A stretch of 64,000 nt of DNA. Origin: an uncultured archaeon. GTDB taxonomy: Archaea; Iainarchaeota; Iainarchaeia; Iainarchaeales; Iainarchaeaceae. Shown piece by piece: positions 31 to 16,309 of this stretch (its first letter is position 1; each line of letters starts with the position of its first letter). The notes under the pieces were generated by a model that had not been told where the DNA came from, did not search any database, and saw only the letters and a program-made list of their open reading frames with translations. The translations under genes were made by a program, and so were the position numbers. Location of the stretch: NCBI GenBank assembly GCA_964373815.1, contig CAYJWI010000001.1, positions 7,885-71,884 of the forward strand. The letters are read 5' to 3'.

Positions 31-1716
31 TTACTTCAAATAGTCGATGTTAAGGCCAAGAGTTTCCTTCAGTTCACGCAGCTGCTTTGCGGCTCTCTGT
101 ATGTTCGCGTTCCTGCTGTTTTTCACTATGAATTCGGTGTAACCTGTCGAGGCGTCGCTGTTTATCTTGCATATCGCGGTTTCGAGGTTGAAGCCGTTCC
201 TGTGCATTATCCTGCACTGCTCATAGAGCAGCCCTGACCTGTCCATACTGTCAATCCTGAATTTCACAAGGCCTAGGTTCCCGTTGTGCTTCCCGTACTC
301 CTTGAGGCTTTTTTCCACGTTCCTCCTCGCCTTTTCCGAGTACGCGAGCGAGAGCCAGCTCGTGTTCACCTGCTTGTGGTCCGAGTAAATTATTTTCACC
401 CTGTCGCCGGAATTGATCTTCGTCCAGAGGGGGAGGATTTTCCCGTTTATTTCCGCCTTGAACGCCCTTTCCGCCTTCTTCCCGTCCTTGAAAAACGCGA
501 AGTCGATTGCGGTTGACTCCGGTGGGAGCTCTATTACCTCTCCCTTGTCCGTGAACACTATCATCGTCCTGTTGTGGAAATCGAGGTTGAGCGTGCCTGC
601 AAGCTCCTCGCTGTCCGTAACTTCTGGCCTGCTTAGCTTCGAAAACATTTTTTCGAACCTTTTGAGCTGCGGGTTCTTGGCTTTTTTCCGGAGGAGCGCA
701 ACAACGCCTTCCCTGCCTATCTCATCCATTTCGCGGGAGAAAATGTATACCTTGAGCGGCTTCTTCGACGGCCCTATTACCTGGGTGTGCAGGGACTGGT
801 ATATGGCGTATTCCGGAATCGCGATGAGGTCCTTCATTTTTTTCGGCAGCGGCTTGAAAGCGGAGTGTATTTTCCCGAGGGCAGAGTAGCAGTCCTGTTC
901 CTGCGGGACTATTACCTTGAGTATCAGGGTGTCGTTGAGCTCGCTGAGCTCTTTGCTATTGACAAGCATCTTGCTGTGCACGGAATAAAACGATTTTCTC
1001 TTGCTGGAAAATTCCCAGTCCATTTCCGGGTGCTTCTTCTTCAGGATCTGGATTGCCTTCTTGAGGTCCGCCTCCTTCCTTTTCCTGTTTTTCTCTATTT
1101 CCTTCTTGAGCTTCTTGAATTTTTTCGGCTCGAGGGAGCTGAAGCAGAGGTCCTCCATTTCATACTTGAGGCCGTGCATGCCGAGCTTGTGCGTGAGCGG
1201 CACGTAAACCACGAGGGCATCGGCTGCGATTCTCATCTGCTTTTCCCTCGGGAGGTGCCTTAGGGTCCTCAGGTTGTGGAGCTTGTCGAAAAGCTTTATT
1301 ATCAGCACGCGCAAATCCTTCGAGGACGCCATTATTGTCTTGATTATGTTAGCGGTCGACTGCTCCTTCCTTGACCTGAAAGCCTCCCTGTCAAGGTTCG
1401 TCAGGCCTTCCACAAGGCCGTAAATTTCGGGGCCGAATTTCTCCCGAAGCTCCGCCCTGCTGATTTTGGTGTCCTCGATTATGTCATGGAGCAGCGCAGC
1501 CGAGACAATGACTTCGTCAAGGCCCCTATCGGCAAGCATTTTTGCAACCGCAAGAGGATGTATGAAGTAAGGCTCCCCGGATTCCCTGAACTGGCCTTCG
1601 TGCCACTTCCTCGAAAGCGCCGCCGCCTCATCGATGAGCCTTATGTCGGCCTTCGGGTGGCTTGCCTTCAAGGCAGATTTGAGTGCCGTAAGTTCCCTGC
1701 CGAAGCCGTTCTTCAT
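31..1716 (-). CDS. long RelA/SpoT homologue (HD hydrolase, synthetase-like region, TGS, ACT)
   Basis: 561-aa ORF. HD motifs HPLAVAKML..LLHDIIEDT and RVLIIKLFDKLHNLRTL. Synthetase-region motifs KRKSFYSVHSKM and YQSLHT. TGS-like VFTDKGEVIELPPESTAIDFAF. ACT-like C-terminus FRIDSMDRSGLL. Confidence 0.8.
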   Translation of the reverse strand: MKNGFGRELTALKSALKASHPKADIRLIDEAAALSRKWHEGQFRESGEPYFIHPLAVAKMLADRGLDEVIVSAALLHDIIEDTKISRAELREKFGPEIYGLVEGLTNLDREAFRSRKEQSTANIIKTIMASSKDLRVLIIKLFDKLHNLRTLRHLPREKQMRIAADALVVYVPLTHKLGMHGLKYEMEDLCFSSLEPKKFKKLKKEIEKNRKRKEADLKKAIQILKKKHPEMDWEFSSKRKSFYSVHSKMLVNSKELSELNDTLILKVIVPQEQDCYSALGKIHSAFKPLPKKMKDLIAIPEYAIYQSLHTQVIGPSKKPLKVYIFSREMDEIGREGVVALLRKKAKNPQLKRFEKMFSKLSRPEVTDSEELAGTLNLDFHNRTMIVFTDKGEVIELPPESTAIDFAFFKDGKKAERAFKAEINGKILPLWTKINSGDRVKIIYSDHKQVNTSWLSLAYSEKARRNVEKSLKEYGKHNGNLGLVKFRIDSMDRSGLLYEQCRIMHRNGFNLETAICKINSDASTGYTEFIVKNSRNANIQRAAKQLRELKETLGLNIDYLK

Positions 1717-6682: not shown

Positions 6683-6781
6683 GACTGATTCTTGGGTTGA
6701 GAAAGAATATAATCCTTGCCAATTCCGCACCGGCAATGAGGCATGCAAAGCGGCTTATCAACACTGGCTCGAAATAAATCC

Positions 6782-7573
6782 ATGGAATTCACTGAAAAGC
6801 ACGCGGAGCTGGTTGGCTTGCACTTTGGAGACGGCAGCTTCACTGTCCGCACCGGGACAAACCGATTGAGATTCCAGTTGAGGGGGGATGCGCACGAAGA
6901 CAGGGCGCATTATGAAGATTTCATAATCCCTTTATGCAATGAGCTAATCGGGATTCCACTATTTGGCAGAAGTCTTTGTACTGTATTTGACAGGAAACTC
7001 AACAGTTTTGGCGTCTGCGTCGAGAGTTGTCGAATTTTGGGATTCTTTCAAGCGCTTGGAATTCCAATAGGGGAAAAACATGAATTGCCTATTCCAGAAT
7101 GGATTAAAAGCAATAATGAATTCTCAAAGGCTTTTGTAAGGGGGCTGTTTGACACCGATGGAGGAATATATTATAAAAAAAACAACACGGCAAAAAGCCA
7201 GCTTAATACAGTAGGCATGCTTCACATATGTTCAACTTCAAAAGTGCTGATTTACGAGACTTCCGGAATTCTTTCACGTGTTGGCATCAAGCACTACATA
7301 AAGCATGGCATAAAGACCAACGGCGAGAGGGATTATTACAAAATCGAGGTTTACCGCCCACACCACAGGTCATTCCTCGAGGCTATAGGTTCCCACAATC
7401 CGAAACATTTGACAAAATTTTGGGTTGCCGAAAAATTCGGTTTTTGCCCTCCTAGAACGACCCTTGAACAGAGAAGGCAAATTTTAAAAGGTGATTTGAG
7501 CCCACTTTCATTTCACAGCGAGGGTACCGTAGCGGTCAACCGGGCTAGCTTGAGGTTCTTTGGTAGTAATTGA
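6782..7573 (+). CDS. free-standing double-motif LAGLIDADG homing endonuclease
   Basis: Two LAGLIDADG motifs, LVGLHFGDGSF and FVRGLFDTDGGIY, about 100 aa apart. Start taken at MEFTEK. The frame continues 56 nt into tRNA-Leu and stops at a TGA inside its intron. Confidence 0.75.
   Translation: MEFTEKHAELVGLHFGDGSFTVRTGTNRLRFQLRGDAHEDRAHYEDFIIPLCNELIGIPLFGRSLCTVFDRKLNSFGVCVESCRILGFFQALGIPIGEKHELPIPEWIKSNNEFSKAFVRGLFDTDGGIYYKKNNTAKSQLNTVGMLHICSTSKVLIYETSGILSRVGIKHYIKHGIKTNGERDYYKIEVYRPHHRSFLEAIGSHNPKHLTKFWVAEKFGFCPPRTTLEQRRQILKGDLSPLSFHSEGTVAVNRASLRFFGSN
7482..7489 (+). promoter_or_regulatory. candidate TATA box for tRNA-Leu
   Basis: TTTTAAAA lies 29-36 nt upstream of the mature tRNA 5' end, inside the endonuclease coding region. 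Confidence 0.3.
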
Positions 7574-8341: not shown

Positions 8342-8728
8342 CTAATTTGTTACAACAAGTTTTCCGCGGAACATTTTCATGCCGCAGTGGTATTCATAGG
8401 TTCCTGGTTTTTGGGGTGTGAATGTTGCCGTGTGCGGTTCGCCGTCCTTTGATACCATGTTTACATTGAAGGCCGGGATGAGCAGTTGCCTGCCGCAGCC
8501 GGAGCCCTTGTCTGCAGAGAAGATAAATTCCACCGGCTGGCCAGCCTTTACCGTGATTTGTGCATTGTCATAAAGCCCTGTATCTAGGGCTCGTACACTC
8601 ACTTTCTGCGCATCAGGGCTATTATCCGGAGTATAGCTTGCTTGTGGTTGTTGGCTTGAACCGGTTTGGCTTTGGGCGCACCCAATGAGCAGCAAGAGGA
8701 GCACTAATGGCACAATGACTCTTTTCAT
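8342..8728 (-). CDS. cupredoxin-domain lipoprotein
   Basis: Lipobox-like LLLLIGCAQS. C-terminal GTYEYHCGMKMFRGKLVV resembles cupredoxin copper-ligand spacing. Overlaps the multicopper oxidase gene by 4 nt. Confidence 0.7.
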   Translation of the reverse strand: MKRVIVPLVLLLLLIGCAQSQTGSSQQPQASYTPDNSPDAQKVSVRALDTGLYDNAQITVKAGQPVEFIFSADKGSGCGRQLLIPAFNVNMVSKDGEPHTATFTPQKPGTYEYHCGMKMFRGKLVVTN

Positions 8729-10299
8729 GTTTTATCATCTCCGTTGTCTATAACTTTTATCATACTCATCATTCCCGAACTGAGGTGTTCGGCGTTGTGG
8801 CAGTGTATCATCCAGTCTCCGGGGTTGGAGAAGTCAACCAAAAGGTCTACCGTGCTACCTTTTGGAATGAGGGCAGTGTCTTTCCACACGAGATTTTTAT
8901 TTGCCTGACCGTTCTCGTTTATCACAAGGAACCTGTTGCCATGAATATGTATTGGATGCTGCATCGGGTGGCTTGAAGCGCCAAGATTTTTGATGCGGAT
9001 CTTTTTCACGTCCCCTTTCTGTGCTGTCCTAAAGAAATCCATATTCTCTTCCTTTGTTTTTGCATCCCTAATAATCCACGTAATTTCCGAATTGGTGGTT
9101 ATTTCGTTTATTGGCCGCATTTCATCCTCCCACTCAATAGTATCCTCGGCATGGCCTGTCATACTGCCACTATGTCCCATGCGATCTAGCATCTTATCCA
9201 TTACTGGCCAGCGTATCAATAGCTCGTATTCAAAATCAGGTTCCTTGTCAAAATATGGGCTGAATTTTCCGATTTCTTCTTTTGCGGGCGTGTTTTCCTC
9301 AAGCAGTGCGTAATCTTCTTTTGTCTGTAAAGAAATTACAGATGGATTGGCATGAATCATGCCGATTTTTTCTTCCTCCGGTTTTCCACTGAGCATGAAA
9401 TAATCCCCAGCTTCTTCAAAAAAAACATCCACAATTGCCCTTTCAGACGGACCTATTGTGATGGAATTCGCAAAGAACGGCTCTGTGTAAAAACCCGCAT
9501 CAGAGCCAACCACCTTCAACTTTGTGTTGGTAATTCCAAACTTGAATGGCCTTGCGTTTGCTGCATTCAGCAAGTACAGCCTCAAAGTTTCTCCCGCGTT
9601 TGTATCCAACCTATACTCGGTTTTGCCGTTAACAAGAATTGTGTTTCCGAACCTGCCCATCACTGCAAAATTTGTCTCTTTTTCAGGAAACTCTGGCAAG
9701 CCATTCCCTTCAATAAGAATGTCATCCAAAACAATTACTTCTCCCCTAACCATATTATTAGTGCTATTTTTTGGCTCTACGAGTATGGTTCCGTAAAGCC
9801 CCAACTCTTGCTGCTTGTCTTCCCTCACATGAGGGTGGTACCAAAACAGACCAACATCAGGAAAGTCAAGCGTATACTCAAAAAAGTCTCCGGGCTTGAC
9901 TTCTGGTTGCGTGATGTCTGGGACACCGTCAAACCTGTTTTCCAGGCGCAAGCCATGCCAGTGAACTGTAGTTGGCTCCGGCAACTCGTTCTTGAAAATA
10001 ACTTTTATCTTAGAACTCTGTTCTACTTTGAGTATCGGGCCTGGCAATTGCCCATTATACGCATAACCTTCAAACTTTTTTCCGCCCACATTTTGCACCA
10101 CTTTAATAGCCGACAAGTGGAATGTATCGCCATTTTTAAGTGTGACCATCTTCTGCTCTTTGGCCATTGACAAAGAATCAAGTTCACTATTTGGCGGACC
10201 TTTGTTTGTCGGCAGTTGCAGGAAGAAAAAACCCGAAACAATCAAAACAACTGCAATTACAATAATTATCCAGTTACGCATTTCGCCACGATCCAACAT
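8725..10299 (-). CDS. multicopper oxidase
   Basis: Copper-binding motifs HWHGLR, HPMQHPIHIHG and HCHNAEHLSSGMM. N-terminal anchor helix. The start may be MRNWIII at 10281. Confidence 0.85.
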   Translation of the reverse strand: MLDRGEMRNWIIIVIAVVLIVSGFFFLQLPTNKGPPNSELDSLSMAKEQKMVTLKNGDTFHLSAIKVVQNVGGKKFEGYAYNGQLPGPILKVEQSSKIKVIFKNELPEPTTVHWHGLRLENRFDGVPDITQPEVKPGDFFEYTLDFPDVGLFWYHPHVREDKQQELGLYGTILVEPKNSTNNMVRGEVIVLDDILIEGNGLPEFPEKETNFAVMGRFGNTILVNGKTEYRLDTNAGETLRLYLLNAANARPFKFGITNTKLKVVGSDAGFYTEPFFANSITIGPSERAIVDVFFEEAGDYFMLSGKPEEEKIGMIHANPSVISLQTKEDYALLEENTPAKEEIGKFSPYFDKEPDFEYELLIRWPVMDKMLDRMGHSGSMTGHAEDTIEWEDEMRPINEITTNSEITWIIRDAKTKEENMDFFRTAQKGDVKKIRIKNLGASSHPMQHPIHIHGNRFLVINENGQANKNLVWKDTALIPKGSTVDLLVDFSNPGDWMIHCHNAEHLSSGMMSMIKVIDNGDDKT

Positions 10300-10489
10300 T
10301 TTTCTGTTCAGTCATATTTTTTTCCAATTGTAAAATCCTGTCTTCAAAACTCTTTTCATGTTTTTTCTTTACTTTCTTTTTGAATAATAAAACCAATGCA
10401 AGGATAAATATTAAAGCGGATAGTGGGATGATTGCAATCCCAAAATTGACACCCAAAAGGTGCTCTAAGTTAATTAACTTGCTGGGCAA
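10274..10489 (-). CDS. small single-TM protein (hypothetical)
   Basis: 71-aa ORF with one hydrophobic helix and a basic stretch KKKVKKKHEK. No homology recognised. Confidence 0.3.
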   Translation of the reverse strand: MPSKLINLEHLLGVNFGIAIIPLSALIFILALVLLFKKKVKKKHEKSFEDRILQLEKNMTEQKNVGSWRNA

Positions 10490-10527
10490 TTATTGTTTCC
10501 GCACCCATACTCTTCCACTCCAAAACT

Positions 10528-11118
10528 TTAGCCAAATGCCATTTTTATTTTGTCCCCGTCCCTTATGATATAGTTCTCGTATTGCATATTTTCAACGCCA
10601 TTAATGAGGAGACTCACTTTTCTAGGTTTTCCATCAGGGCACATGTCTCCGTTTTTCTTGTCCAGTATCACTTCTTGCGAGAAATTTCTTCCGATGCTTG
10701 ACATCATAGCTCCAAGAGTTATTTGTGATGGACTTGAAACACTGCCTTCGATATGGAAAAGGCTGTCGTCATGGAGGTGGAGCAAATTACTTCCAAAGTG
10801 CTGGCCCGAAGCAGGCTTTGGAAGGGCGACATTTTCCCCGCAAATGACCAATGTGGGAGTCGCATGCCAATGGACATTGCCAAGGGGAAATGATAAGCTT
10901 CCAGTGTCATAATTTGCTTGCTTGGACTTTGGAATGGACATGAAAAACCACGCAATCCCAAAGGCTACAAGGGCTATTACTGAATAAGTCAATATTTTGT
11001 TGAAAAGTTTTTTCTTTTCCCCGGCGTTGATCGCAATTTGCTTTGCTTCTCTTCTTGTCTCAAGCTTTATCTGCCTTCTCTCATGCTTTGAGAGTTGCTC
11101 TTCAACCAATTGATTCAC
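10528..11118 (-). CDS. membrane-anchored extracytoplasmic protein with His clusters
   Basis: 196-aa ORF with an N-terminal TM helix, then HWHATPTLVICGENV and LLHLHDDSLFHIEG. I recall this kind of domain next to DsbA or copper genes but cannot name the family. Confidence 0.5.
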   Translation of the reverse strand: MNQLVEEQLSKHERRQIKLETRREAKQIAINAGEKKKLFNKILTYSVIALVAFGIAWFFMSIPKSKQANYDTGSLSFPLGNVHWHATPTLVICGENVALPKPASGQHFGSNLLHLHDDSLFHIEGSVSSPSQITLGAMMSSIGRNFSQEVILDKKNGDMCPDGKPRKVSLLINGVENMQYENYIIRDGDKIKMAFG

Positions 11119-11578
11119 CTTCTTTCCTGAATGCGCCCAAATAATTGAGTGTGAACACTAGCAACCCTATGCTAATAAGCGTTATGAGCAAACTATACTG
11201 CGTGAGGAACACACTCACGCTAAGCGGCAGGAAAATCGCCCCGAGTGAAGCGCAGGCAGGGCATTGCGAAACAAAGAACAATGCAAGCGTGCCAGCTCCG
11301 CTGCTTCCGGCTCCCTTTACCTTCTCGTCCAATGCGCACGTTTTTGGCTGCCTCCAATTGTAAACCTGGAATGAAAGCGTGATTCCGAAGATAATGGAAA
11401 AAATAATGAACAAAAAACCGTTTTCCGGAGGTATTGTCGCAAGCCACACGCCAAAATTCTCTATTATTCCAAGCAACTGGGCGTAAACATAAATAATGGC
11501 AAAAATTATTGAAGAGGAAACCGCCAGGGCAAGGTACGAATGTTTCTTCAGTACTTCCAATAATTTCATTCCTGTCAT
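11102..11578 (-). CDS. 4-TM membrane protein with intramembrane CPxC motif (paralogue 1)
   Basis: 158-aa ORF. A Gly-rich segment GAGSSGAGTLALFF is followed by SQCPACASLGAIFLPL inside a predicted TM helix. Same architecture as 13501..13968 and 15394..15900. Confidence 0.6.
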   Translation of the reverse strand: MTGMKLLEVLKKHSYLALAVSSSIIFAIIYVYAQLLGIIENFGVWLATIPPENGFLFIIFSIIFGITLSFQVYNWRQPKTCALDEKVKGAGSSGAGTLALFFVSQCPACASLGAIFLPLSVSVFLTQYSLLITLISIGLLVFTLNYLGAFRKEGESIG

Positions 11579-11601
11579 GTTGCTTTCATTCCCGGTTTTG
11601 T

Positions 11602-12228
11602 CTAATGTAAATGGTCACTGTCCCCGCCGCAACCGTCCGAAAGGTTCCAAATCTCGGTCACTTGCTGGCCTGTAAAATTGCGGTTCTTTATAAAGTATTT
11701 TCCCAAGCCACCATATACATTCCATCGCCAGCACTTGCAGCAGCATGGGCCTTTTTCTTTTGAGTTTTGCATCGCATAGTCATATTCCTTTTGCTCTTCT
11801 GCAGATAATTGGATTGTATCATAATAGGAAGACAGCTTTTTTGCCAAGCCAGCCTCAATATCATACGGGTCCGAAGGAATCTCCGGGAATTGTTTGTACT
11901 TTTCAAGCCCTTTTACTTGTTCAGTATATCTATGCATACTCATTGCACTGCAGCAAGACCCCTGCAGCCTGGCATTGTCTGGCATGCTTGCAATGGAGTC
12001 TCGGTAAGAATTGGAACAGAAAGAGTTACCATTCCTGGAAAGATAATCAAACCTTGCAACAAGTGCATTTTCCCCATTTCCGTCCTGTGGCCCTTTATAT
12101 TGCGCTGCGGCCGTGGAATTCTTCGTTTCCTGCGGTAACGAAAAGTAGAAAAAAACTCCAATAGCAAGGGCAGAAATCATGACTACCGCTGCCAAAAAAG
12201 TTTTGTCGGTTGGATTCATGCACAACAT
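11602..12228 (-). CDS. secreted or anchored Cys-rich protein, PCYCGC-motif-like
   Basis: 208-aa ORF with an N-terminal helix and motifs GSCCSAMSMHRY, GPCCCKCWRW (compare the PCYCGC motif family) and DGCGGDSDH. Confidence 0.55.
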   Translation of the reverse strand: MLCMNPTDKTFLAAVVMISALAIGVFFYFSLPQETKNSTAAAQYKGPQDGNGENALVARFDYLSRNGNSFCSNSYRDSIASMPDNARLQGSCCSAMSMHRYTEQVKGLEKYKQFPEIPSDPYDIEAGLAKKLSSYYDTIQLSAEEQKEYDYAMQNSKEKGPCCCKCWRWNVYGGLGKYFIKNRNFTGQQVTEIWNLSDGCGGDSDHLH

Positions 12229-12294
12229 CTTTTTGCATTAGAGGGGGGTGAAAAGAGGGCACACCAAAGCAGTGCACCCTCTTAACTCATATTT

Positions 12295-13101
12295 TTACTT
12301 TAGGAGGCCATCGATTGCCGATTTGAGTACGGAGTATGGTTGCGCCCCCACAATCAACTGGCCCGTTCCGTCAGCCTTGCCTATTACAAAGCTCGGGGTG
12401 CCGGTAACTCCAATGCTTGACCCTTCATTGAAGTTCGCTTGGACAGCACTTGTATACTTGCCGGTGTCAAGGCAGGTATTGAATTGCGATGAGTTCAGGC
12501 CCAAGTCTTGCCCCCATTTTTTCACATCCTCTTTGGTAAGGTTTGAGATTGTCCCTTGGCCAAATTTTGCCTGTTCAGTGAAGATTTTGTCGTGCATTTC
12601 CCAATACTTCTGCTGGTCTCCCGCGCACCTTGCGGCTTCAGAATACACCGGCGCCATCGGGTGGAAATTTAGTGGAAAGTCCTTGTACACGAAAAGCACT
12701 TTTCCGGTTTCTATATACTCCTTGTCTAACTGAGCCTTCGAGTCATTGAACCATTTCCTGCAGAAAGGGCACTGATAATCAGAGTACTCGATTATTACAA
12801 TCGGCGCGTCCTGCTTACCCTGAACAGCTGCTGCCCCCTGCAATAGGCCCTTTATTTCCGTGGTTTGTTGTGCCGGTTGCGGGTTTGGTTGGGGAGTTGC
12901 GGCAACATTGCCTGCATTGCCAGAGTCTTGTGACGGTGCACCGCCCCCCCGGATTTCTGAAATTGTTTTTGTGAGACCTGAAAGGCTATTGCCTACCCCC
13001 GAACCTGCGGCAAATATGCTAACTGATAGTATTATTGCAGCAAACAGTATACTCACAGGCAAATACAGCGCCTCCGCCTCAGATTTTACGTGTTCGCTCA
13101 C
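12295..13101 (-). CDS. DsbA-like thiol:disulfide oxidoreductase (thioredoxin fold)
   Basis: N-terminal TM anchor, low-complexity linker, then YSDYQCPFCRKW and a DsbA-like helical insertion. Confidence 0.8.
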   Translation of the reverse strand: MSEHVKSEAEALYLPVSILFAAIILSVSIFAAGSGVGNSLSGLTKTISEIRGGGAPSQDSGNAGNVAATPQPNPQPAQQTTEIKGLLQGAAAVQGKQDAPIVIIEYSDYQCPFCRKWFNDSKAQLDKEYIETGKVLFVYKDFPLNFHPMAPVYSEAARCAGDQQKYWEMHDKIFTEQAKFGQGTISNLTKEDVKKWGQDLGLNSSQFNTCLDTGKYTSAVQANFNEGSSIGVTGTPSFVIGKADGTGQLIVGAQPYSVLKSAIDGLLK

Positions 13102-13500: not shown

Positions 13501-13968
13501 ATGGTCGCGGAAAATAAACTGGCATATTTTTTGCATAAGCACAAGTTTATGGGCGGATTGCCGCTTTTGGCTTTTTTTATTGTGTTATTAGGCACTCCGA
13601 CGGCACTTATCCCTAACCCGTTTATCCATTACATCAGGATGACGCCGGTTACCTGGCTTGATTATTTTTTCCTTCTCACGACAGGCATTCTCCTTTCAGC
13701 CAATGTGATTGTTTTCCTTGAGAAAAAAACGAAAAAAGAGGGCGCAATATTCGGGGGCGGCTTTTTGGGTTTTTTGGCGTTTGCCTGCCCAATATGTAAC
13801 ATCCTATTGGTCAGCCTGCTTGGCGCAACTTTTATTTTGGAATTCATCGAGCCCCTAAGGCCGTTATTTGGCATCGCGTCAATTGTGATTCTCTTGGCTA
13901 CACTTTATTTACAACTGAGGCAGCCGACCTGCAACGAATGCATGATTGGCGGTCAAAGCACACAATGA
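13501..13968 (+). CDS. 4-TM membrane protein with intramembrane CPxC motif (paralogue 2)
   Basis: 155-aa ORF. GAIFGGGFLGFLAFACPICNILLVSLLGA plus a C-terminal CNEC. Confidence 0.6.
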   Translation: MVAENKLAYFLHKHKFMGGLPLLAFFIVLLGTPTALIPNPFIHYIRMTPVTWLDYFFLLTTGILLSANVIVFLEKKTKKEGAIFGGGFLGFLAFACPICNILLVSLLGATFILEFIEPLRPLFGIASIVILLATLYLQLRQPTCNECMIGGQSTQ

Positions 13969-13987: not shown

Positions 13988-14697
13988 TCAAAATAAAATT
14001 GACATTAAATAAACAACTGGAAACAATATTGCCTGGTGCAAAAAATAAACCAAAAGGGAATTCTTCCCCAGTGCCTGCAAAAATCCGGCCGCCGAGTTTT
14101 TCGGCTCTTCAAGTTGGAATTTTCTTTCCGCACCTTTGTATAATGTATCGCCGATAAACAAACCAATGAGAACTACCCCAAACCACGGGAACACCGGGAA
14201 AAAATCCAATGTTGGTTGCGGAGCCGCAAATCCAAGCCAAACCAGCAATGGCTGGTTGGTGCTGCGCAAATCATAAAACAGCGGCAAGGCGATTAACACA
14301 AGGGCAAGTAGTGCACCCAACCGCTTTTTTCCGGCAAACGGGATTGAAAGTATTATCGAGGCGCCTATCAGGTGGAGGATGCCAAAGTAAATGAAATTCT
14401 CCCTGAAAAAATGAAGGTGAAAGCCGTTATCAGAAGGCCAAACCCGAAAACAACCGCCCCGCGCTTTAGGAATCGCTGGGCGTAGTCATTTCTGTGCTTG
14501 TGGCAGGTTATGCTCAGAGCAACGCCGACAAGCAACAGAAACAGGGTGGCAGTGGCCTTCTGGAGCAAGCCCCAGAACCCAGAATAAATGTCCCCTTGGA
14601 TAAATCCAAAATACCTCAAATCCCAGACAAAGTGGAAAACAACCATCATCATTACTGCCAGGCCGCGTCCAAAATCAATTTCCCAAAAGTGGTGCAT
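13988..14697 (-). pseudogene. DUF1624-like (heparan-alpha-glucosaminide N-acetyltransferase-like) membrane protein, split by a frameshift
   Basis: The N-terminal half (14368..14697, FGRGLAVMMMVVFHFVWDLRYFG) and the C-terminal half (13988..14320) are in different frames with a 47-nt gap. Together they make one protein of typical length. Confidence 0.5.
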
Positions 14698-14798
14698 TAA
14701 CCTGCCTTTTCTTTATTAAAAAGGATTTTCAGAGGTTACCCCGAAATCTCACCGGAAACCAAAAAGCAAAAATGAGCTAGGTGAACAATTATTTGGTT

Positions 14799-15167
14799 TT
14801 ATAGTTTGTTGAAGGCGTTAGATTCTGCCAGTTTTATGAGTGGAAGTATTGCTTTCCTGACTTTTTCGCCGTTGCGCGTGAGCGAGTATTCTACCCTCGG
14901 CGGCTTCTCAGAAAACGCTGTTCTGACGACCAAGTTGTGTTCTTCTAGCTCGCACAGCCTTTCAGCCAGAGATTTCTGCGTGATTCCGCCAATCCTTTTT
15001 AATAGGCCATTGAACCTGAGCGCGCCAAAGTTCCCGATTATTACTAGAATGCTCAGCGCCCACTTCTTGCTAAGAAAAGCAGTCTTTTCAAGTGGCTTTG
15101 GACAGTAGCCATTGCCCCTCATTCCACACTCGCTGTTCGTTACCAAACGTATACTGGTTTCCGGCAT
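14799..15167 (-). CDS. HxlR-family winged-helix transcriptional regulator
   Basis: CPKPLEKTAFLSKKWALSILVII..LRFNGLLKRIGGITQKSLAERLCELEEHNLV..EKPPRVEYSLT. Confidence 0.75.
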   Translation of the reverse strand: MPETSIRLVTNSECGMRGNGYCPKPLEKTAFLSKKWALSILVIIGNFGALRFNGLLKRIGGITQKSLAERLCELEEHNLVVRTAFSEKPPRVEYSLTRNGEKVRKAILPLIKLAESNAFNKL

Positions 15168-15245
15168 GAAACTGCCCCCCTTAAATTAATCAAGAACCAC
15201 TTAATAGTATACAAAATAAACCAATTAAAAATGGAGGTGTTTCAA

Positions 15246-15380
15246 ATGGACAAAACAAAATCCTGTTGCAGTGGAGGAGTATGCCAAGCCTGTGATTGCT
15301 GCATATGCATATGCACAAAAGAACTCAAAAAAGCACTTTCACCGCAAGCAAGAAAACTCTTACTTAAAGCACTCCAATGA
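15246..15380 (+). CDS. 44-aa cysteine-rich peptide (8 Cys in residues 7-23), not in the ORF track
   Basis: ATG is preceded by GGAGGTG at an 8-nt spacing. Translation is MDKTKSCCSGGVCQACDCCICICTKELKKALSPQARKLLLKALQ. The stop lies 13 nt before the CPxC paralogue 3 start, and the gene is divergent from the HxlR regulator. Confidence 0.5.
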   Translation: MDKTKSCCSGGVCQACDCCICICTKELKKALSPQARKLLLKALQ

Positions 15381-15393
15381 AGAGTGACGCCAA

Positions 15394-15900
15394 ATGATTG
15401 GAACCGAATCAAAATCAACTATTAATGCCATTGGCCTGGCACTCAAGTCCAGAAAACGCTTGGCTATAGGCATTATTTCAGCAATTGCAATGGCTTTTCT
15501 CTCCATTTACATTCCAGCGGCTATTAAGCTTGGAACCACAATTGAATCCCAAATTTCTCTTTTAACTTGGGAGAACATTTTACTCATAACCATTTTCTCG
15601 ATTTTGTTCGGGGTGTCAATCGCCCTTCACAGTTATGCAATGAGCTTAAAGAAAAACCATGGCAATATGAGCGTGACCCCGGTTGGAGGATTTGCCGGCA
15701 TCATAGGCGGGGTGTTTTCAGGGCCGATGTGCCCTACCTGCATAAGCACCATCATCAGCATATTAGGCCTCGGCAGCTCCACAGCCATTTTCATGCTCTC
15801 CCACAGGACGGAAATACTCGCACTAAGCGCACTTCTCATTATCACCTCGATTTATTTTGTAGGGAAAAAAGTAACACGTTTTTGCGACAAATGCAAATGA
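15394..15900 (+). CDS. 4-TM membrane protein with intramembrane CPxC motif (paralogue 3)
   Basis: 168-aa ORF. VGGFAGIIGGVFSGPMCPTCISTIISILGLG plus a C-terminal CDKC. Confidence 0.6.
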   Translation: MIGTESKSTINAIGLALKSRKRLAIGIISAIAMAFLSIYIPAAIKLGTTIESQISLLTWENILLITIFSILFGVSIALHSYAMSLKKNHGNMSVTPVGGFAGIIGGVFSGPMCPTCISTIISILGLGSSTAIFMLSHRTEILALSALLIITSIYFVGKKVTRFCDKCK

Positions 15901-16000
15901 AAAGACAGGCTTATCTATTTCTGAAGCTCTAGTCTGGAATCAGGCATTAAAGGCTCGTAAAGCGTTTTAAGGAGAATGGCACCCGTTTTAAACGGGTGAT

Positions 16001-16309
16001 TTGGCAATGGCGCTTGAAATAATTCTCACAATAATCTCCACATTGTTTTCGCTGGGGGCAATCTACTACTCGTTCATGCTTTCAAAGGAAACCAGCGGCG
16101 CAAAATACTGGATTTTTTTCCTAATAGCATCCGTAATGTTCGGAATAGCGCACCTGGCCTCAAAGGATTTCATGGGCTTTTCATCCGAAACCCAGTTTGT
16201 CGTCAAGGAGGTAGCTGAAATCGCAGGCGCATTCTCGCTGGCGTACGCTACTTATGGCTTGTATTCCTCTATGAAAAAAATCCGCGAAAAAATCGGCAAA
16301 GAACTTTAG
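16001..16309 (+). CDS. small 3-TM membrane protein (hypothetical)
   Basis: 102-aa hydrophobic ORF with a TTG start (or ATG at 16007). No motif recognised. Confidence 0.4.
   Translation: MAMALEIILTIISTLFSLGAIYYSFMLSKETSGAKYWIFFLIASVMFGIAHLASKDFMGFSSETQFVVKEVAEIAGAFSLAYATYGLYSSMKKIREKIGKEL

Follow-up and report, generated by a model that had tools for sequence, protein, structure and literature searches.

The short open reading frame at positions 15246-15380 of the 64-kb window (the whole stretch of DNA analyzed here) is a genuine gene under strong purifying selection, and its cysteine-rich product probably represents an archaeal metal-binding protein of a new, metallothionein-like kind, an assignment that we regard as putative. 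On balance we incline to the view that this peptide founds an undescribed, DPANN-restricted family of translated cytoplasmic proteins, the cytoplasmic location following from a sequence that has neither a signal peptide nor a transmembrane segment. The predicted product, MDKTKSCCSGGVCQACDCCICICTKELKKALSPQARKLLLKALQ, is read from the ATG at 15246 to the TGA at 15378-15380 and carries cysteines at residues 7, 8, 13, 16, 18, 19, 21 and 23, such that residues 7-23 form a cluster of 8 cysteines within 17 residues with the pattern CC-x4-C-x2-C-D-CC-I-C-I-C. In these respects, as well as in the consensus ribosome-binding site GGAGGTG, the position of the stop codon 13 nt before the third of three paralogous CPxC membrane protein genes (start at 15394) and the divergent arrangement with an HxlR-family regulator (78 nt between the two start codons), the sequence bears out a first-pass annotation of this DNA. 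Its description of the gene as unannotated is likewise fair, given that the gene is uncalled both on the public contig carrying the locus (L004) and at the closest orthologous locus (L030); more generally, it is absent from most annotations because gene callers miss or mis-frame it. The features of the locus are collected in Table 1.

Table 1. Features of the cysteine-rich peptide locus and its surroundings (positions in the window)
Feature	Position	Strand	Basis or remark
Cys-rich peptide gene	15246..15380	+	ORF and translation; 44 aa
Shine-Dalgarno sequence GGAGGTG of the peptide gene	15233..15239	+	6 nt 5' of the ATG
HxlR-family winged-helix regulator	14799..15167	-	PF01638, 74.6 bits vs cut-off 20.8
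TTAAATT box between the start codons	15181..15187	.	T26, T27, A28, A30 and T31 invariant (14 intergenic regions)
Conserved intergenic block AATAGTATACAAAATAAACCAATTAAA	15203..15229	.	Alignment of 14 intergenic regions
CPxC membrane protein, paralog 3	15394..15900	+	168 aa, motif GPMCPTC, C-terminal CDKCK
CPxC paralog 2	13501..13968	+	Weak MerT-like signal, below cut-off
Context operon	8725..13101	-	Pfam matches; homologs recur near the peptide at other loci
DsbA-like thioredoxin	12295-13101	-	Context operon
Protein with CCCKCW motif, no named function	11602-12228	-	Context operon
CPxC paralog 1	11102-11578	-	Context operon
His-rich membrane-anchored protein, no named function	10528-11118	-	Context operon
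Multicopper oxidase	8725-10299	-	Context operon

We recovered 61 non-redundant homologous loci, all of them in DPANN-type archaeal MAGs or metagenomes, with groundwater and sediment samples among the sources, and every one encodes a stand-alone peptide of 36-49 aa with a distinct sequence; 53 of the 61 peptides have exactly 8 cysteines and 44 are exactly 44 aa long. A GGAGG or GAGGTG lies 5-9 nt upstream of a conserved ATG in nearly all loci, and the in-frame ATG at 15231 was rejected as the start, as it belongs to the Shine-Dalgarno sequence (ATGGAGGTG) and is not conserved. An alignment of 31 sequences revealed C7, C16, C18, C19, I20, C21, I22, L27, A35 and L39 as invariant columns and C8, G10, G11, C13, D17, C23, T24, L31, P33, L38 and L43 as at least 90% conserved. 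Diversity at the three codon positions of the gene is 0.19/0.12/0.49, the invariant amino acid columns show free synonymous variation, and with a pS of 0.77 (synonymous sites being saturated) and a pN of 0.145 the pN/pS is 0.19, its lowest value being in the sense frame. The earlier claim that the ORF is a real, conserved small protein is thus borne out both by the homologous loci and by purifying selection in the sense frame. On the minus strand, an ORF antisense to the gene (15242-15418) is open in each of the 22 homologs tested, because the sense frame lacks Tyr, His and Gln codons and the wobble position is shared between the two frames; it was discarded as a gene in view of its higher pN/pS (0.35, versus 0.19 in the sense frame), its lower amino acid identity and its lack of a conserved start. 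A DNA palindrome within the CICIC codons (TGCATATGCATATGCA) was similarly dismissed as an operator: it is a codon accident, with other loci using ATT, ATC or TGT codons. An Rfam scan of 14600-16100 returned no match.

This pattern of conservation also bears on whether the ORF might encode a RiPP precursor, with cysteines crosslinked by a maturase in the manner of sactipeptides, ranthipeptides or lanthipeptides, and with the C-terminal helix acting as a recognition "follower". The ORF is indeed short and Cys-rich, its helical segment could serve as a recognition element and the membrane protein encoded downstream could export the product. However, RiPP cores usually vary, whereas the "core" of this peptide is its most conserved part, with an invariant CDCCICI; it has no leader or cleavage motif and matches no NCBIfam RiPP model; and no radical-SAM enzyme, lanthionine synthetase, cyclodehydratase, peptidase or other RiPP maturase is present among the 25 most frequent Pfam families of the 148 neighboring ORFs or among the window neighbors that were scanned. 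With no conserved maturase among these families and neighbors, the first-pass annotation was right to disfavor this alternative, which we find barely credible.

In composition the peptide is metallothionein-like. Metallothioneins, taken as an operational class, are proteins below about 10 kDa with about 15-35% Cys arranged in CC, CxC and CxxC and with few or no aromatic or His residues, which bind several metal ions in metal-thiolate clusters and are induced by metals. The peptide agrees with this description in its size, in its Cys content of 18% (8/44) and in its scarcity of F, W, Y and H, which make up 5 of the 2660 residues across the 61 peptides and none of those in the window's copy; metal binding and metal induction would be expected from its genomic context. 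Searches of Pfam and NCBIfam with the peptide recovered no family at E<=1, inclusive of the metallothioneins (prokaryotic ones too), HMA, TRASH and ArsD, and a PDB sequence search recovered no chain below E=0.08. Membership in individual families was also assessed by fold and motif: 1) the peptide has no match to the HMA model PF00403, and its AF2 model shows no beta-alpha-beta-beta-alpha-beta fold. 2) Its Cys spacing is incompatible with the C-x19-22-C-x3-C of TRASH/YHS, to which it has no Pfam match. 3) The CC-x4-C of ArsD is present, but there is no match to an ArsD model and the peptide is too short for a thioredoxin-like fold. The AF2 model (mean pLDDT 69) contains helices at residues 24-30 and 33-43 and has no fold match in the PDB; residues 24-43 are predicted to form a basic helix-turn-helix hairpin. 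The C-terminal KE.xK.L(T/S)PEARKLL resembles a CagY repeat unit, at a non-significant E of 0.5. Literature searches on archaeal metallothioneins, HxlR, DPANN merA and the motif returned no description of this peptide, and we know of no metallothionein-like protein established for archaea.

Two Zn ions or an Fe-S cluster could also find their ligands in the eight cysteines, and small zinc-binding micro-proteins are common in archaea. The peptide might accordingly be a micro-protein that binds Zn or Fe-S structurally, is expressed constitutively and serves a housekeeping function unrelated to stress, its neighbors being coincidental. We judge this highly unlikely: it lacks the CPxCG-type spacing of zinc fingers, and the family is absent from most archaea, an HMM search of 1.84 billion protein representatives recovering only 3 stand-alone peptide clusters. 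Further, the family is limited to particular islands, where a stress-type regulator is adjacent to the peptide gene in 47 of the 54 loci with upstream DNA.

It is this regulator, HxlR or ArsR, that is the near-constant partner of the peptide, the CPxC gene being optional. In 43 of the 61 loci the peptide gene has a divergent HxlR gene as its immediate neighbor, and in 7 a co-directional ArsR/SmtB gene with a Cys tail lies directly upstream of it; these neighbor counts, like the others given here, are phylogenetically non-independent lower bounds, as many contigs are short. Three loci (L025, L048, L051) have no regulator, and in them the peptide gene directly follows CcdA and TlpA-like genes. 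The regulator in the window belongs to the HxlR/DUF24 family by its score above the PF01638 gathering threshold and by its N-terminal Cys-Pro (C22); it has C14 as an extra cysteine, and both residues, which lie in the motif C-x-M-K-G-x-G-Y-C-P, are conserved across 19 orthologs. From this arrangement we strongly infer a regulator-target relation between the adjacent regulator and the peptide gene. Within the DNA between the two genes, the alignment of 14 intergenic regions showed A48, T50-A56, A60-61, A63-C66, A68, T70 and A72-73 to be invariant columns of the conserved block, and such blocks are invariant despite saturation at synonymous sites in the genes on either side. Most loci carry AATAGT-N11-ACTATT in this block; the right arm is degenerate in the window, which holds no second copy of the operator-like block. 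We consider the block a candidate HxlR operator and/or TATA element, and the TTAAATT box, by its position, a candidate for the archaeal TATA box from which the peptide gene would be transcribed.

The constancy of this pairing, which exceeds that of any transporter, raises the alternative that the peptide is itself a regulatory partner, either as a metal-loaded or oxidized co-sensor that signals to HxlR or ArsR, or as a protein that binds the regulator or DNA via its basic hairpin. The strongly basic C-terminal hairpin is conserved like the Cys cluster (L27, L31, P33, A35, L38, L39, L43), the two conserved HxlR cysteines could accept metal, and precedents are offered by Sulfolobus MerH for MerR, CopZ for CopY and the polycopper "copper-fist" domains; the TRASH/MerH precedent in archaeal mer operons has been reviewed (PMC3466566). 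On the other side, among the 1.84 billion representatives the HMM search found the peptide fused neither to a regulator nor to anything else, the regulator is missing at three loci, and a hairpin of 20 residues is small for a domain that binds DNA on its own. A regulatory role, which we hold to be improbable, would moreover overlap our preferred explanation instead of excluding it.

Metal binding by the peptide, the identity of the metal and its hand-off are each suggested by gene context. The relevant associations are: 1) In one locus (L023) the gene order is ArsR - peptide - MerC (37.9 bits, cut-off 27.6) - MerT (34.5 bits, cut-off 32.9), and a true MerC takes the place of the CPxC protein downstream of the peptide both there and in L061. 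2) MerA equivalogs with the CxxxxC site and a C-terminal vicinal CC are encoded 0.7-2.2 kb away in four loci (L018, L030, L039, L059); in the last of these, the genes hxlR-arsR-merA-tlpA run divergently from peptide-CPxC. For both MerA proteins that were scored with NCBIfam, the alignment to the long MerA model is confined to its core, and they are therefore without the NmerA domain. 3) HMA/CopZ-like and MerT-like proteins are found near the peptide in 5 loci each, P1B-ATPases in 2 and multicopper oxidases in 7, including the window. Against the metal reading count the lack of any MerA in the 64-kb window and a set of thiol-disulfide neighbors at least as rich as the metal genes (thioredoxin-fold proteins 7, DsbD_TM 4, AhpC/Redoxin 3, glutaredoxin 3, TrxR-like 2). 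The earlier suggestion of a metallothionein or metallochaperone thus gains strong support from gene context, through the MerA, MerC, MerT, HMA, P1B-ATPase, multicopper oxidase and ArsR/SmtB genes in the clusters, but none from a match to any known family.

The thiol-disulfide neighbors would fit a function in thiol-redox or electrophile defense, with the peptide being an inducible polythiol of ribosomal origin that acts as a sacrificial scavenger or reversible multi-disulfide buffer, or as the cytosolic redox partner of the CPxC protein. Under this alternative the hosts may be without low-molecular-weight thiols and HxlR would switch the peptide on upon oxidants, quinones or aldehydes; in the redox-partner version the CPxC protein would be a CcdA/DsbD-like transmembrane disulfide relay. 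Consistent with this, a DsbD_TM gene follows the CPxC gene in L030, a DsbA-like gene lies beside CPxC paralogs in the window, and the three loci without a regulator have the CcdA and TlpA-like genes noted above. To our knowledge, every HxlR-family regulator characterized so far (HxlR, YodB, CatR, HypR, QorR) uses thiols to sense electrophiles or oxidants, responding to aldehydes, quinones or oxidants and not to metals. Nevertheless, the thiol-disulfide context cannot separate the redox and metal readings, because extracytoplasmic thiol-disulfide systems are classic copper-tolerance determinants, as in the case of the Scs system. A redox function also leaves unexplained both the ArsR/SmtB - peptide - MerC - MerT operon and the recurring MerA, HMA, P1B-ATPase and multicopper oxidase neighbors, and metal-thiolate clusters typically show the CC, CxC and CxxC spacings and the near-absence of aromatic residues seen here. 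We regard it as unlikely.

The proposed coupling to a CPxC membrane protein stood in part. In 31 loci a CPxC-family gene follows the peptide gene, whose cysteines are retained; these loci include L030, where the peptide stop codon overlaps the CPxC start (ATGA). This agrees with the expectation that both the ORF and its cysteines would be conserved upstream of such genes. However, a gene for a CPxC or MerC membrane protein follows the peptide in 30 of 50 loci, and in 20 of the 50 no CPxC gene lies directly downstream. In the window, paralog 3 is probably co-transcribed with the peptide gene. It has about 4 predicted TM helices, with CPTC in TM3 and CDKC in a Lys/Arg-rich C-terminal tail, a topology that we derived from the K/R distribution in the sequence. 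The protein has no Pfam match, its AF2 model (pLDDT 47) is too poor for fold comparison, and the CPxC family profile compared with true MerC gave E=0.018 in hmmsearch and a probability of 35% in hhalign. The CPxC protein, not the peptide, accounts for a match to the "RiPP_CPAC" model NF033629, which at E=0.07 was rejected as noise. Paralog 2 yielded E=3.3e-4 with the MerT model PF02411 (below cut-off) and E=2e-4 with NF010314, and its orthologs form part of the L018 cluster that contains MerA. About half of the CPxC orthologs lack the C-terminal CxxC that the hand-off proposed below would require, which counts against this step.

Taken together, we favor, with moderate confidence, the view that the peptide is inducible and acts in the cytosol as a sink of thiolates for Hg(II)/Cu(I) or hands these metals on, its gene being arranged in a smtB-smtA-like layout. 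The peptide gene would be the primary target of the adjacent regulator, be it the two-Cys divergent HxlR or, in some lineages, the co-directional ArsR/SmtB, and the two genes have a conserved, bidirectional control region in common. Synthesis of the peptide may be triggered when thiophilic metals, of which Hg(II) and/or Cu(I) are the likeliest, modify the regulator cysteines; a membrane protein of the CPxC, MerC or MerT type would often be made alongside it. The peptide would then bind metal via its cysteines in the cytosol, as a metallothionein-like sink and/or as a hand-off protein that could relay metal from the membrane-protein cysteines to MerA (without NmerA) or to export systems. A more specific proposal, which we put forward as doubtful, is that the 8-Cys peptide is the DPANN cytosolic Hg(II)/Cu(I) carrier that replaces NmerA and low-molecular-weight thiols, and that it delivers metal to the two-Cys N-terminus of HxlR. 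If this were true, the regulator, peptide and CPxC protein would constitute a self-contained sense-import-sequester module undescribed in any organism, and the HxlR found here would be a previously unrecognized metal-responsive branch.

The peptide family would add a conserved small Cys-rich component to archaeal Hg/Cu resistance, and its loci would contribute candidate membrane partners of the MerC/MerT type as well as a possible metal-responsive branch of HxlR, a family so far tied to aldehydes, quinones and oxidants. A 2012 survey found archaeal mer operons to consist mostly of merA alone, with transporters essentially absent (PMC3466566). The peptide is also relevant to the buffering of thiophilic toxicants in DPANN cells, with their reduced genomes, and, at 44 aa, it is short enough for synthesis, which makes the metal-binding hypothesis cheap to test.

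Comparison with known systems places the peptide beside several small metal-handling proteins without equating it to any of them: 1) The layout recalls cyanobacterial smtB-smtA (SmtA/BmtA), in which the gene for a small Cys-rich cytosolic protein is likewise divergent from that of a winged-helix regulator, with a short shared operator-promoter; in 7 of the peptide loci the regulator itself is of the ArsR/SmtB family, and the composition of the peptide is metallothionein-like too. SmtA has 9 Cys and 2 His and adopts a zinc-finger-like fold around a Zn4 cluster. The peptide, in contrast, has no sequence similarity to SmtA, combines 8 Cys in 17 residues with a basic hairpin, belongs to an archaeal host and usually has as its regulator an HxlR protein, of a family not known to sense metals. 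2) The CCSGGVC of the peptide has the Cys spacing of the metalloid site of ArsD, CCSTGVC (N-terminal C12-C13-x4-C18), and part of its residues, a likeness confined to a 7-residue motif, and in some operons the peptide gene directly follows an ArsR-type regulator, as in the case of ArsD; yet it has neither a family match nor a thioredoxin-like fold, and no ArsA or ArsB is encoded nearby. 3) The role proposed for the peptide is that of MerP, NmerA and CopZ, namely the transfer of a thiophilic metal from a MerT/MerC-type protein to MerA or an exporter, and in L023 its gene is placed after the regulator and before MerC-MerT. Unlike the HMA domain, which is a beta-alpha-beta-beta-alpha-beta fold of roughly 70 aa with one GMxCxxC, the peptide has 44 aa and 8 Cys, and because separate HMA proteins co-occur in 5 loci it is not simply an HMA replacement. 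4) The CPxC proteins resemble MerC, MerT and MerF in being small and polytopic, with one Cys pair inside a TM helix rich in Gly and, in many cases, another in a basic tail on the cytoplasmic side, but they have two extra N-terminal TM helices and lie below every Pfam threshold. 5) Sulfolobus MerH/TRASH is a small Cys protein encoded next to the regulator in an archaeal mer cluster and proposed to traffic Hg(II) (PMC3466566). Like MerH, the peptide is small, contains cysteines and lies beside a regulator, and four of its loci carry MerA with an ArsR regulator; it differs in lacking the TRASH/YHS signature, in its Cys pattern and size, in its occurrence in DPANN rather than Sulfolobales, and in its frequent coupling to a membrane protein.

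Re-reading of the window bore out the ORF, eight cysteines, ribosome-binding site and neighbours described in the first-pass annotation. Translation from ATG to TGA gives MDKTKSCCSGGVCQACDCCICICTKELKKALSPQARKLLLKALQ, with cysteines at residues 7, 8, 13, 16, 18, 19, 21 and 23. A word-indexed protein search returned three homologues of 73-77% identity, scans with back-translated patterns recovered 25 loci in species-representative genomes and 41 more in metagenomes, and contig look-ups added two; after duplicate removal there were 61 non-redundant loci including the window's own, all with distinct peptide sequences, of which 44 encode exactly 44 residues and 53 exactly eight cysteines. The consensus is MA(K/R)RKPCCxGGVCPxCDCCICICTK(D/E)LKKxL(T/S)PEARKLLxxAL; in a 31-sequence alignment C7, C16, C18, C19, I20, C21, I22, L27, A35 and L39 are invariant, and conservation reaches 90% or more at C8, G10, G11, C13, D17, C23, T24, L31, P33, L38 and L43. 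The codon alignment of the homologues showed that: 1) synonymous codons vary freely in spite of invariant amino-acid columns, one invariant leucine using each of its six possible codons, Gly all four, Cys TGT and TGC, and Ile ATA, ATT and ATC. 2) Nucleotide diversity at codon positions 1, 2 and 3 is 0.19, 0.12 and 0.49; pS averages 0.77 (saturated) and pN 0.145, and the median JC-corrected dN/dS about 0.09. 3) The annotated frame has the lowest pN/pS of all six (0.19), against 0.35 in the antisense frame sharing its wobble position and above 1.1 in the remaining four. 4) The ATG and a GGAGG-type Shine-Dalgarno sequence 5-9 nt 5' of it are kept across loci. Because the residues, start and Shine-Dalgarno sequence are conserved, pN/pS is low and synonymous variation is free, the ORF is, as judged from sequence, a translated gene that purifying selection strongly constrains; the earlier suggestion of a real gene thus holds across 61 distinct homologues, and a non-genic ORF is effectively excluded. 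A 16-nt DNA palindrome within the CICIC codons was rejected as an accident of codon choice, being present only in the window. Gene callers systematically overlook the peptide, which is uncalled in the window's own public contig (L004) and in the closest orthologous locus (L030); in the protein record P0006 the annotated CPxC protein begins too far 5', with an erroneous N-terminal extension translated out of frame from the peptide region, and in several loci simple ORF listings place a spurious antisense ORF across the peptide.

Coordinates of features in the window and in other peptide-bearing loci
Feature	Sequence	Position	Strand	Remark
RelA/SpoT-homologue ORF	window	31-1716	-	long; HD_4, RelA_SpoT and TGS domains
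LAGLIDADG_3 homing-endonuclease ORF	window	6743-7573	+	free-standing; E=6.6e-12
Multicopper oxidase	window	8725-10299	-	last gene of operon with DsbA-like protein, CPxC1 and two unknowns
p196	window	10528-11118	-	membrane-anchored, His-rich (HWH...H.H)
CPxC paralogue 1 (CPxC1)	window	11102-11578	-	
p208	window	11602-12228	-	GPCCCKCWRW motif
CPxC paralogue 2 (CPxC2)	window	13501-13968	+	
HGSNAT_cat C-terminal half	window	13988-14320	-	profile 127-221
HGSNAT_cat N-terminal half	window	14368-14697	-	profile 2-94
HxlR-family gene	window	14799-15167	-	PF01638, 74.6 bits; divergent from peptide gene
Shine-Dalgarno GGAGGTG	window	15233-15239	+	6 nt 5' of peptide ATG
Peptide gene	window	15246-15380	+	
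Peptide residues 25-44	window	15318-15377	+	CagY-like stretch
CPxC3 membrane protein	window	15394-15900	+	168 aa; starts 13 nt past peptide stop
Peptide gene	L030	4256-4390		
Variant peptide gene	L071	1137-1277		
Spurious antisense ORF	L021	4901-5143	-	
Peptide gene, no regulator	L048	2669-2803		
Peptide gene, no regulator	L051	2250-2393		
Peptide gene, no regulator	L025	74-223		

By sequence the peptide lies outside every known family: it matched no Pfam or NCBIfam family even at E<=1, a PDB sequence search gave nothing significant (best E=0.08), no Rfam family was found in its region, and a literature search found no description of it. When 1.84 billion representative proteins were searched exhaustively with an HMM, only three peptide clusters emerged, all stand-alone and of 45-49 aa, with no fusion to a larger protein. 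The closest named carrier is Candidatus Iainarchaeum andersonii (84% peptide identity), a member of the DPANN kingdom Nanobdellati; others are Woesearchaeota, Aenigmatarchaeota, Nanoarchaeota and 'Nanobdellati' MAGs, and several carrier MAGs bear the label uncultured Methanosarcinales. Variants include one with an extra CI unit (CDCCICICIC, nine cysteines), other nine-cysteine forms (CPCC, with T or P in place of D17), and a short-linker subgroup (CTKRLKPEARKLL) that is four residues shorter and occurs mostly in ArsR-linked operons; they come from L071, the protein records P0007 and P0008, and the loci L027, L055-L058 and L060-L062. The sequence is net basic and has neither hydrophobic segment nor signal peptide, and the peptide is therefore predicted to be cytoplasmic. 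An AF2 model (mean pLDDT 69) leaves the Cys-rich N-terminal half poorly defined, predicts two helices, residues 24-30 and 33-43, forming a helix-turn-helix hairpin, and found no Foldseek match. Residues 25-44, KE.xK.L(T/S)PEARKLL, are nearly identical to the Helicobacter pylori CagY repeat KECEKLLTPEARKLL (PDB 6odi) at a non-significant E=0.5, which probably reflects convergence of a helical hairpin motif.

The peptide's true constant partner is a regulator, which immediately adjoins it in 47 of the 54 loci that extend 450 nt or more upstream. A divergent HxlR gene adjoins it in 43 of the 61 loci, the start codons typically 72-81 nt apart (78 nt in the window), and four more have HxlR within 1 kb; in seven, ArsR/SmtB lies directly upstream and co-directional, with a Cys-rich C-terminal tail (CAKGTCK, CKYLCGCK, CRKLCC). 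The HxlR orthologues have two N-terminal cysteines in common (C-x-M-K-G-x-G-Y-C-P), and this peptide-linked clade may sense metals. Across 14 aligned intergenic regions a TTAAAT box and the block A-TAGTATA--AA-AAAC-A-T-AA, in most loci AATAGT-N11-ACTATT, are invariant although synonymous sites of the flanking genes are saturated, which points to a bidirectional control region common to both genes; the blocks are candidate TATA boxes or an operator. Control of the peptide by the adjacent regulator is strongly suggested. No neighbour is more constant than the regulator, and the basic hairpin is conserved to the same degree as the cysteines; both would also suit a chiefly regulatory co-sensor, which we regard as quite unlikely.

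The first-pass annotation had also coupled the peptide to the CPxC gene. A family HMM built from CPxC3 detected a same-strand CPxC gene directly 3' of the peptide in 31 loci, and in L030 the stop codon of the peptide gene and the start codon of CPxC (protein 66% identical) overlap as ATGA; the coupling is optional, as 20 of the 50 loci with downstream sequence have neither CPxC nor MerC there, and in L023 and L061 a true MerC takes the CPxC position. In CPxC3, GPMCPTC falls inside a TM helix (predicted) and the basic C-terminus carries CDKCK; the C-terminal CxxC is missing in about half of the orthologues. The family is absent from Pfam; matches of CPxC2 to MerT (E=3e-4) and of the family HMM to MerC (E=0.018; hhalign probability 35%) are suggestive of relationship to MerC/MerT. 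For CPxC3 the AF2 model was of unusably low quality, and K/R distribution predicts both termini in the cytoplasm and the CPxC motif mid-membrane. Between CPxC2 and HxlR lie two adjacent half-ORFs of HGSNAT_cat, a membrane acyltransferase that is split, frameshifted or pseudogenised. Elsewhere the window holds a free-standing homing-endonuclease ORF and, in an apparent DPANN genome, a RelA/SpoT homologue; to our knowledge archaea rarely have (p)ppGpp synthetase/hydrolase homologues.

The wider theme of the peptide neighbourhoods is thiophilic-metal and thiol stress. L023 has ArsR (PF01022, 1e-13), peptide, MerC (37.9 bits, cut-off 27.6) and MerT (34.5 bits, cut-off 32.9) on one strand; a MerA equivalog lies 666 nt from the peptide in L018 (TIGR02053, 567.6 bits vs 454); arsR-merA (480.4 bits)-merT-HMA adjoins hxlR/peptide/CPxC/DsbD_TM in L030, merA-merT-HMA adjoins hxlR/peptide/CPxC in L039, and in L059 peptide-CPxC diverges from hxlR-arsR-merA-tlpA. 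The C-terminal vicinal Cys pair is present in all four MerA proteins and the CxxxxC active site in all three full-length ones, that of L039 having lost its N-terminus at the contig edge; those of L018 and L030 align only to about 96-559 of the long NCBIfam MerA model and therefore lack the NmerA domain. HMA/CopZ-like and MerT-like proteins each occur near the peptide in five loci, multicopper oxidases in seven and a Cu-type P1B-ATPase in two; the 64-kb window itself holds no MerA. A blind Pfam tally of the 148 ORFs lying no more than 2.6 kb from the peptide gave HxlR 18, ArsR 4, Cu-oxidase 2, thioredoxin folds 7, DsbD_TM 4, AhpC/Redoxin 3 and Pyr_redox_2 3; the families listed include no RiPP maturase, and a RiPP precursor is scarcely credible. 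The window proteins p196, with homologues in 14 loci, and p208 match no Pfam family and may belong to the metal/thiol island as additional uncharacterised components (homologues of either in L003, L006, L007, L009, L011, L012, L018, L024-L026, L034, L036, L041, L045 and L069).

By composition and context the peptide behaves like a metallothionein or metallochaperone, and on balance we slightly favour an inducible Hg(II)/Cu(I)-binding sink and/or hand-off protein in a regulator-target pair. Induced as target of the adjacent regulator responding to thiophilic stress, it would use its eight thiolates to capture cytosolic Hg(II) and/or Cu(I), acting as a metallothionein-like sink, and it could pass metal between the MerC/MerT-like membrane protein and export systems or MerA, the recipient here being without NmerA. 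The interpretation in the first-pass annotation is supported in part, its metallothionein/metallochaperone reading gaining strong contextual backing from MerA, MerC, MerT, HMA, ATPase and ArsR neighbours; metal binding, the metal's identity and the direction of transfer we infer from that context only, and a housekeeping Zn or Fe-S micro-protein seems very improbable. A role in buffering thiol redox state or electrophiles, or in a redox relay whose other member is a CcdA-like CPxC protein, is unlikely: it agrees with the known behaviour of HxlR regulators and with the abundant thioredoxin and DsbD genes, but leaves those same metal-gene associations unexplained. Its best support is the regulator-less arrangement in L048, L051 and L025 (upstream sequence of the last ends at the contig edge), where the peptide follows CcdA-type DsbD_TM and TlpA/AhpC-like genes; L048, L051 and L072 are the three loci with no regulator nearby. 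In this third context a membrane-anchored protein of 360-414 aa without Pfam family lies 3' of the peptide.

The favoured sink or hand-off protein has parallels in known systems. The regulator-peptide pair matches the gene layout of cyanobacterial smtB-smtA, a divergent regulator and metallothionein pair, and the first three cysteines (CCSGGVC) echo, as a motif only, the ArsD metalloid site CCSTGVC. The peptide would be the first conserved metallothionein/metallochaperone-type candidate in archaea, and the DPANN Hg/Cu islands around it also contain MerC/MerT-type genes, a gene type that a 2012 survey reported as essentially absent from Archaea (PMC3466566). Its place likewise recalls that of MerH, the small TRASH protein beside the regulator in Sulfolobus mer operons (PMC3466566).
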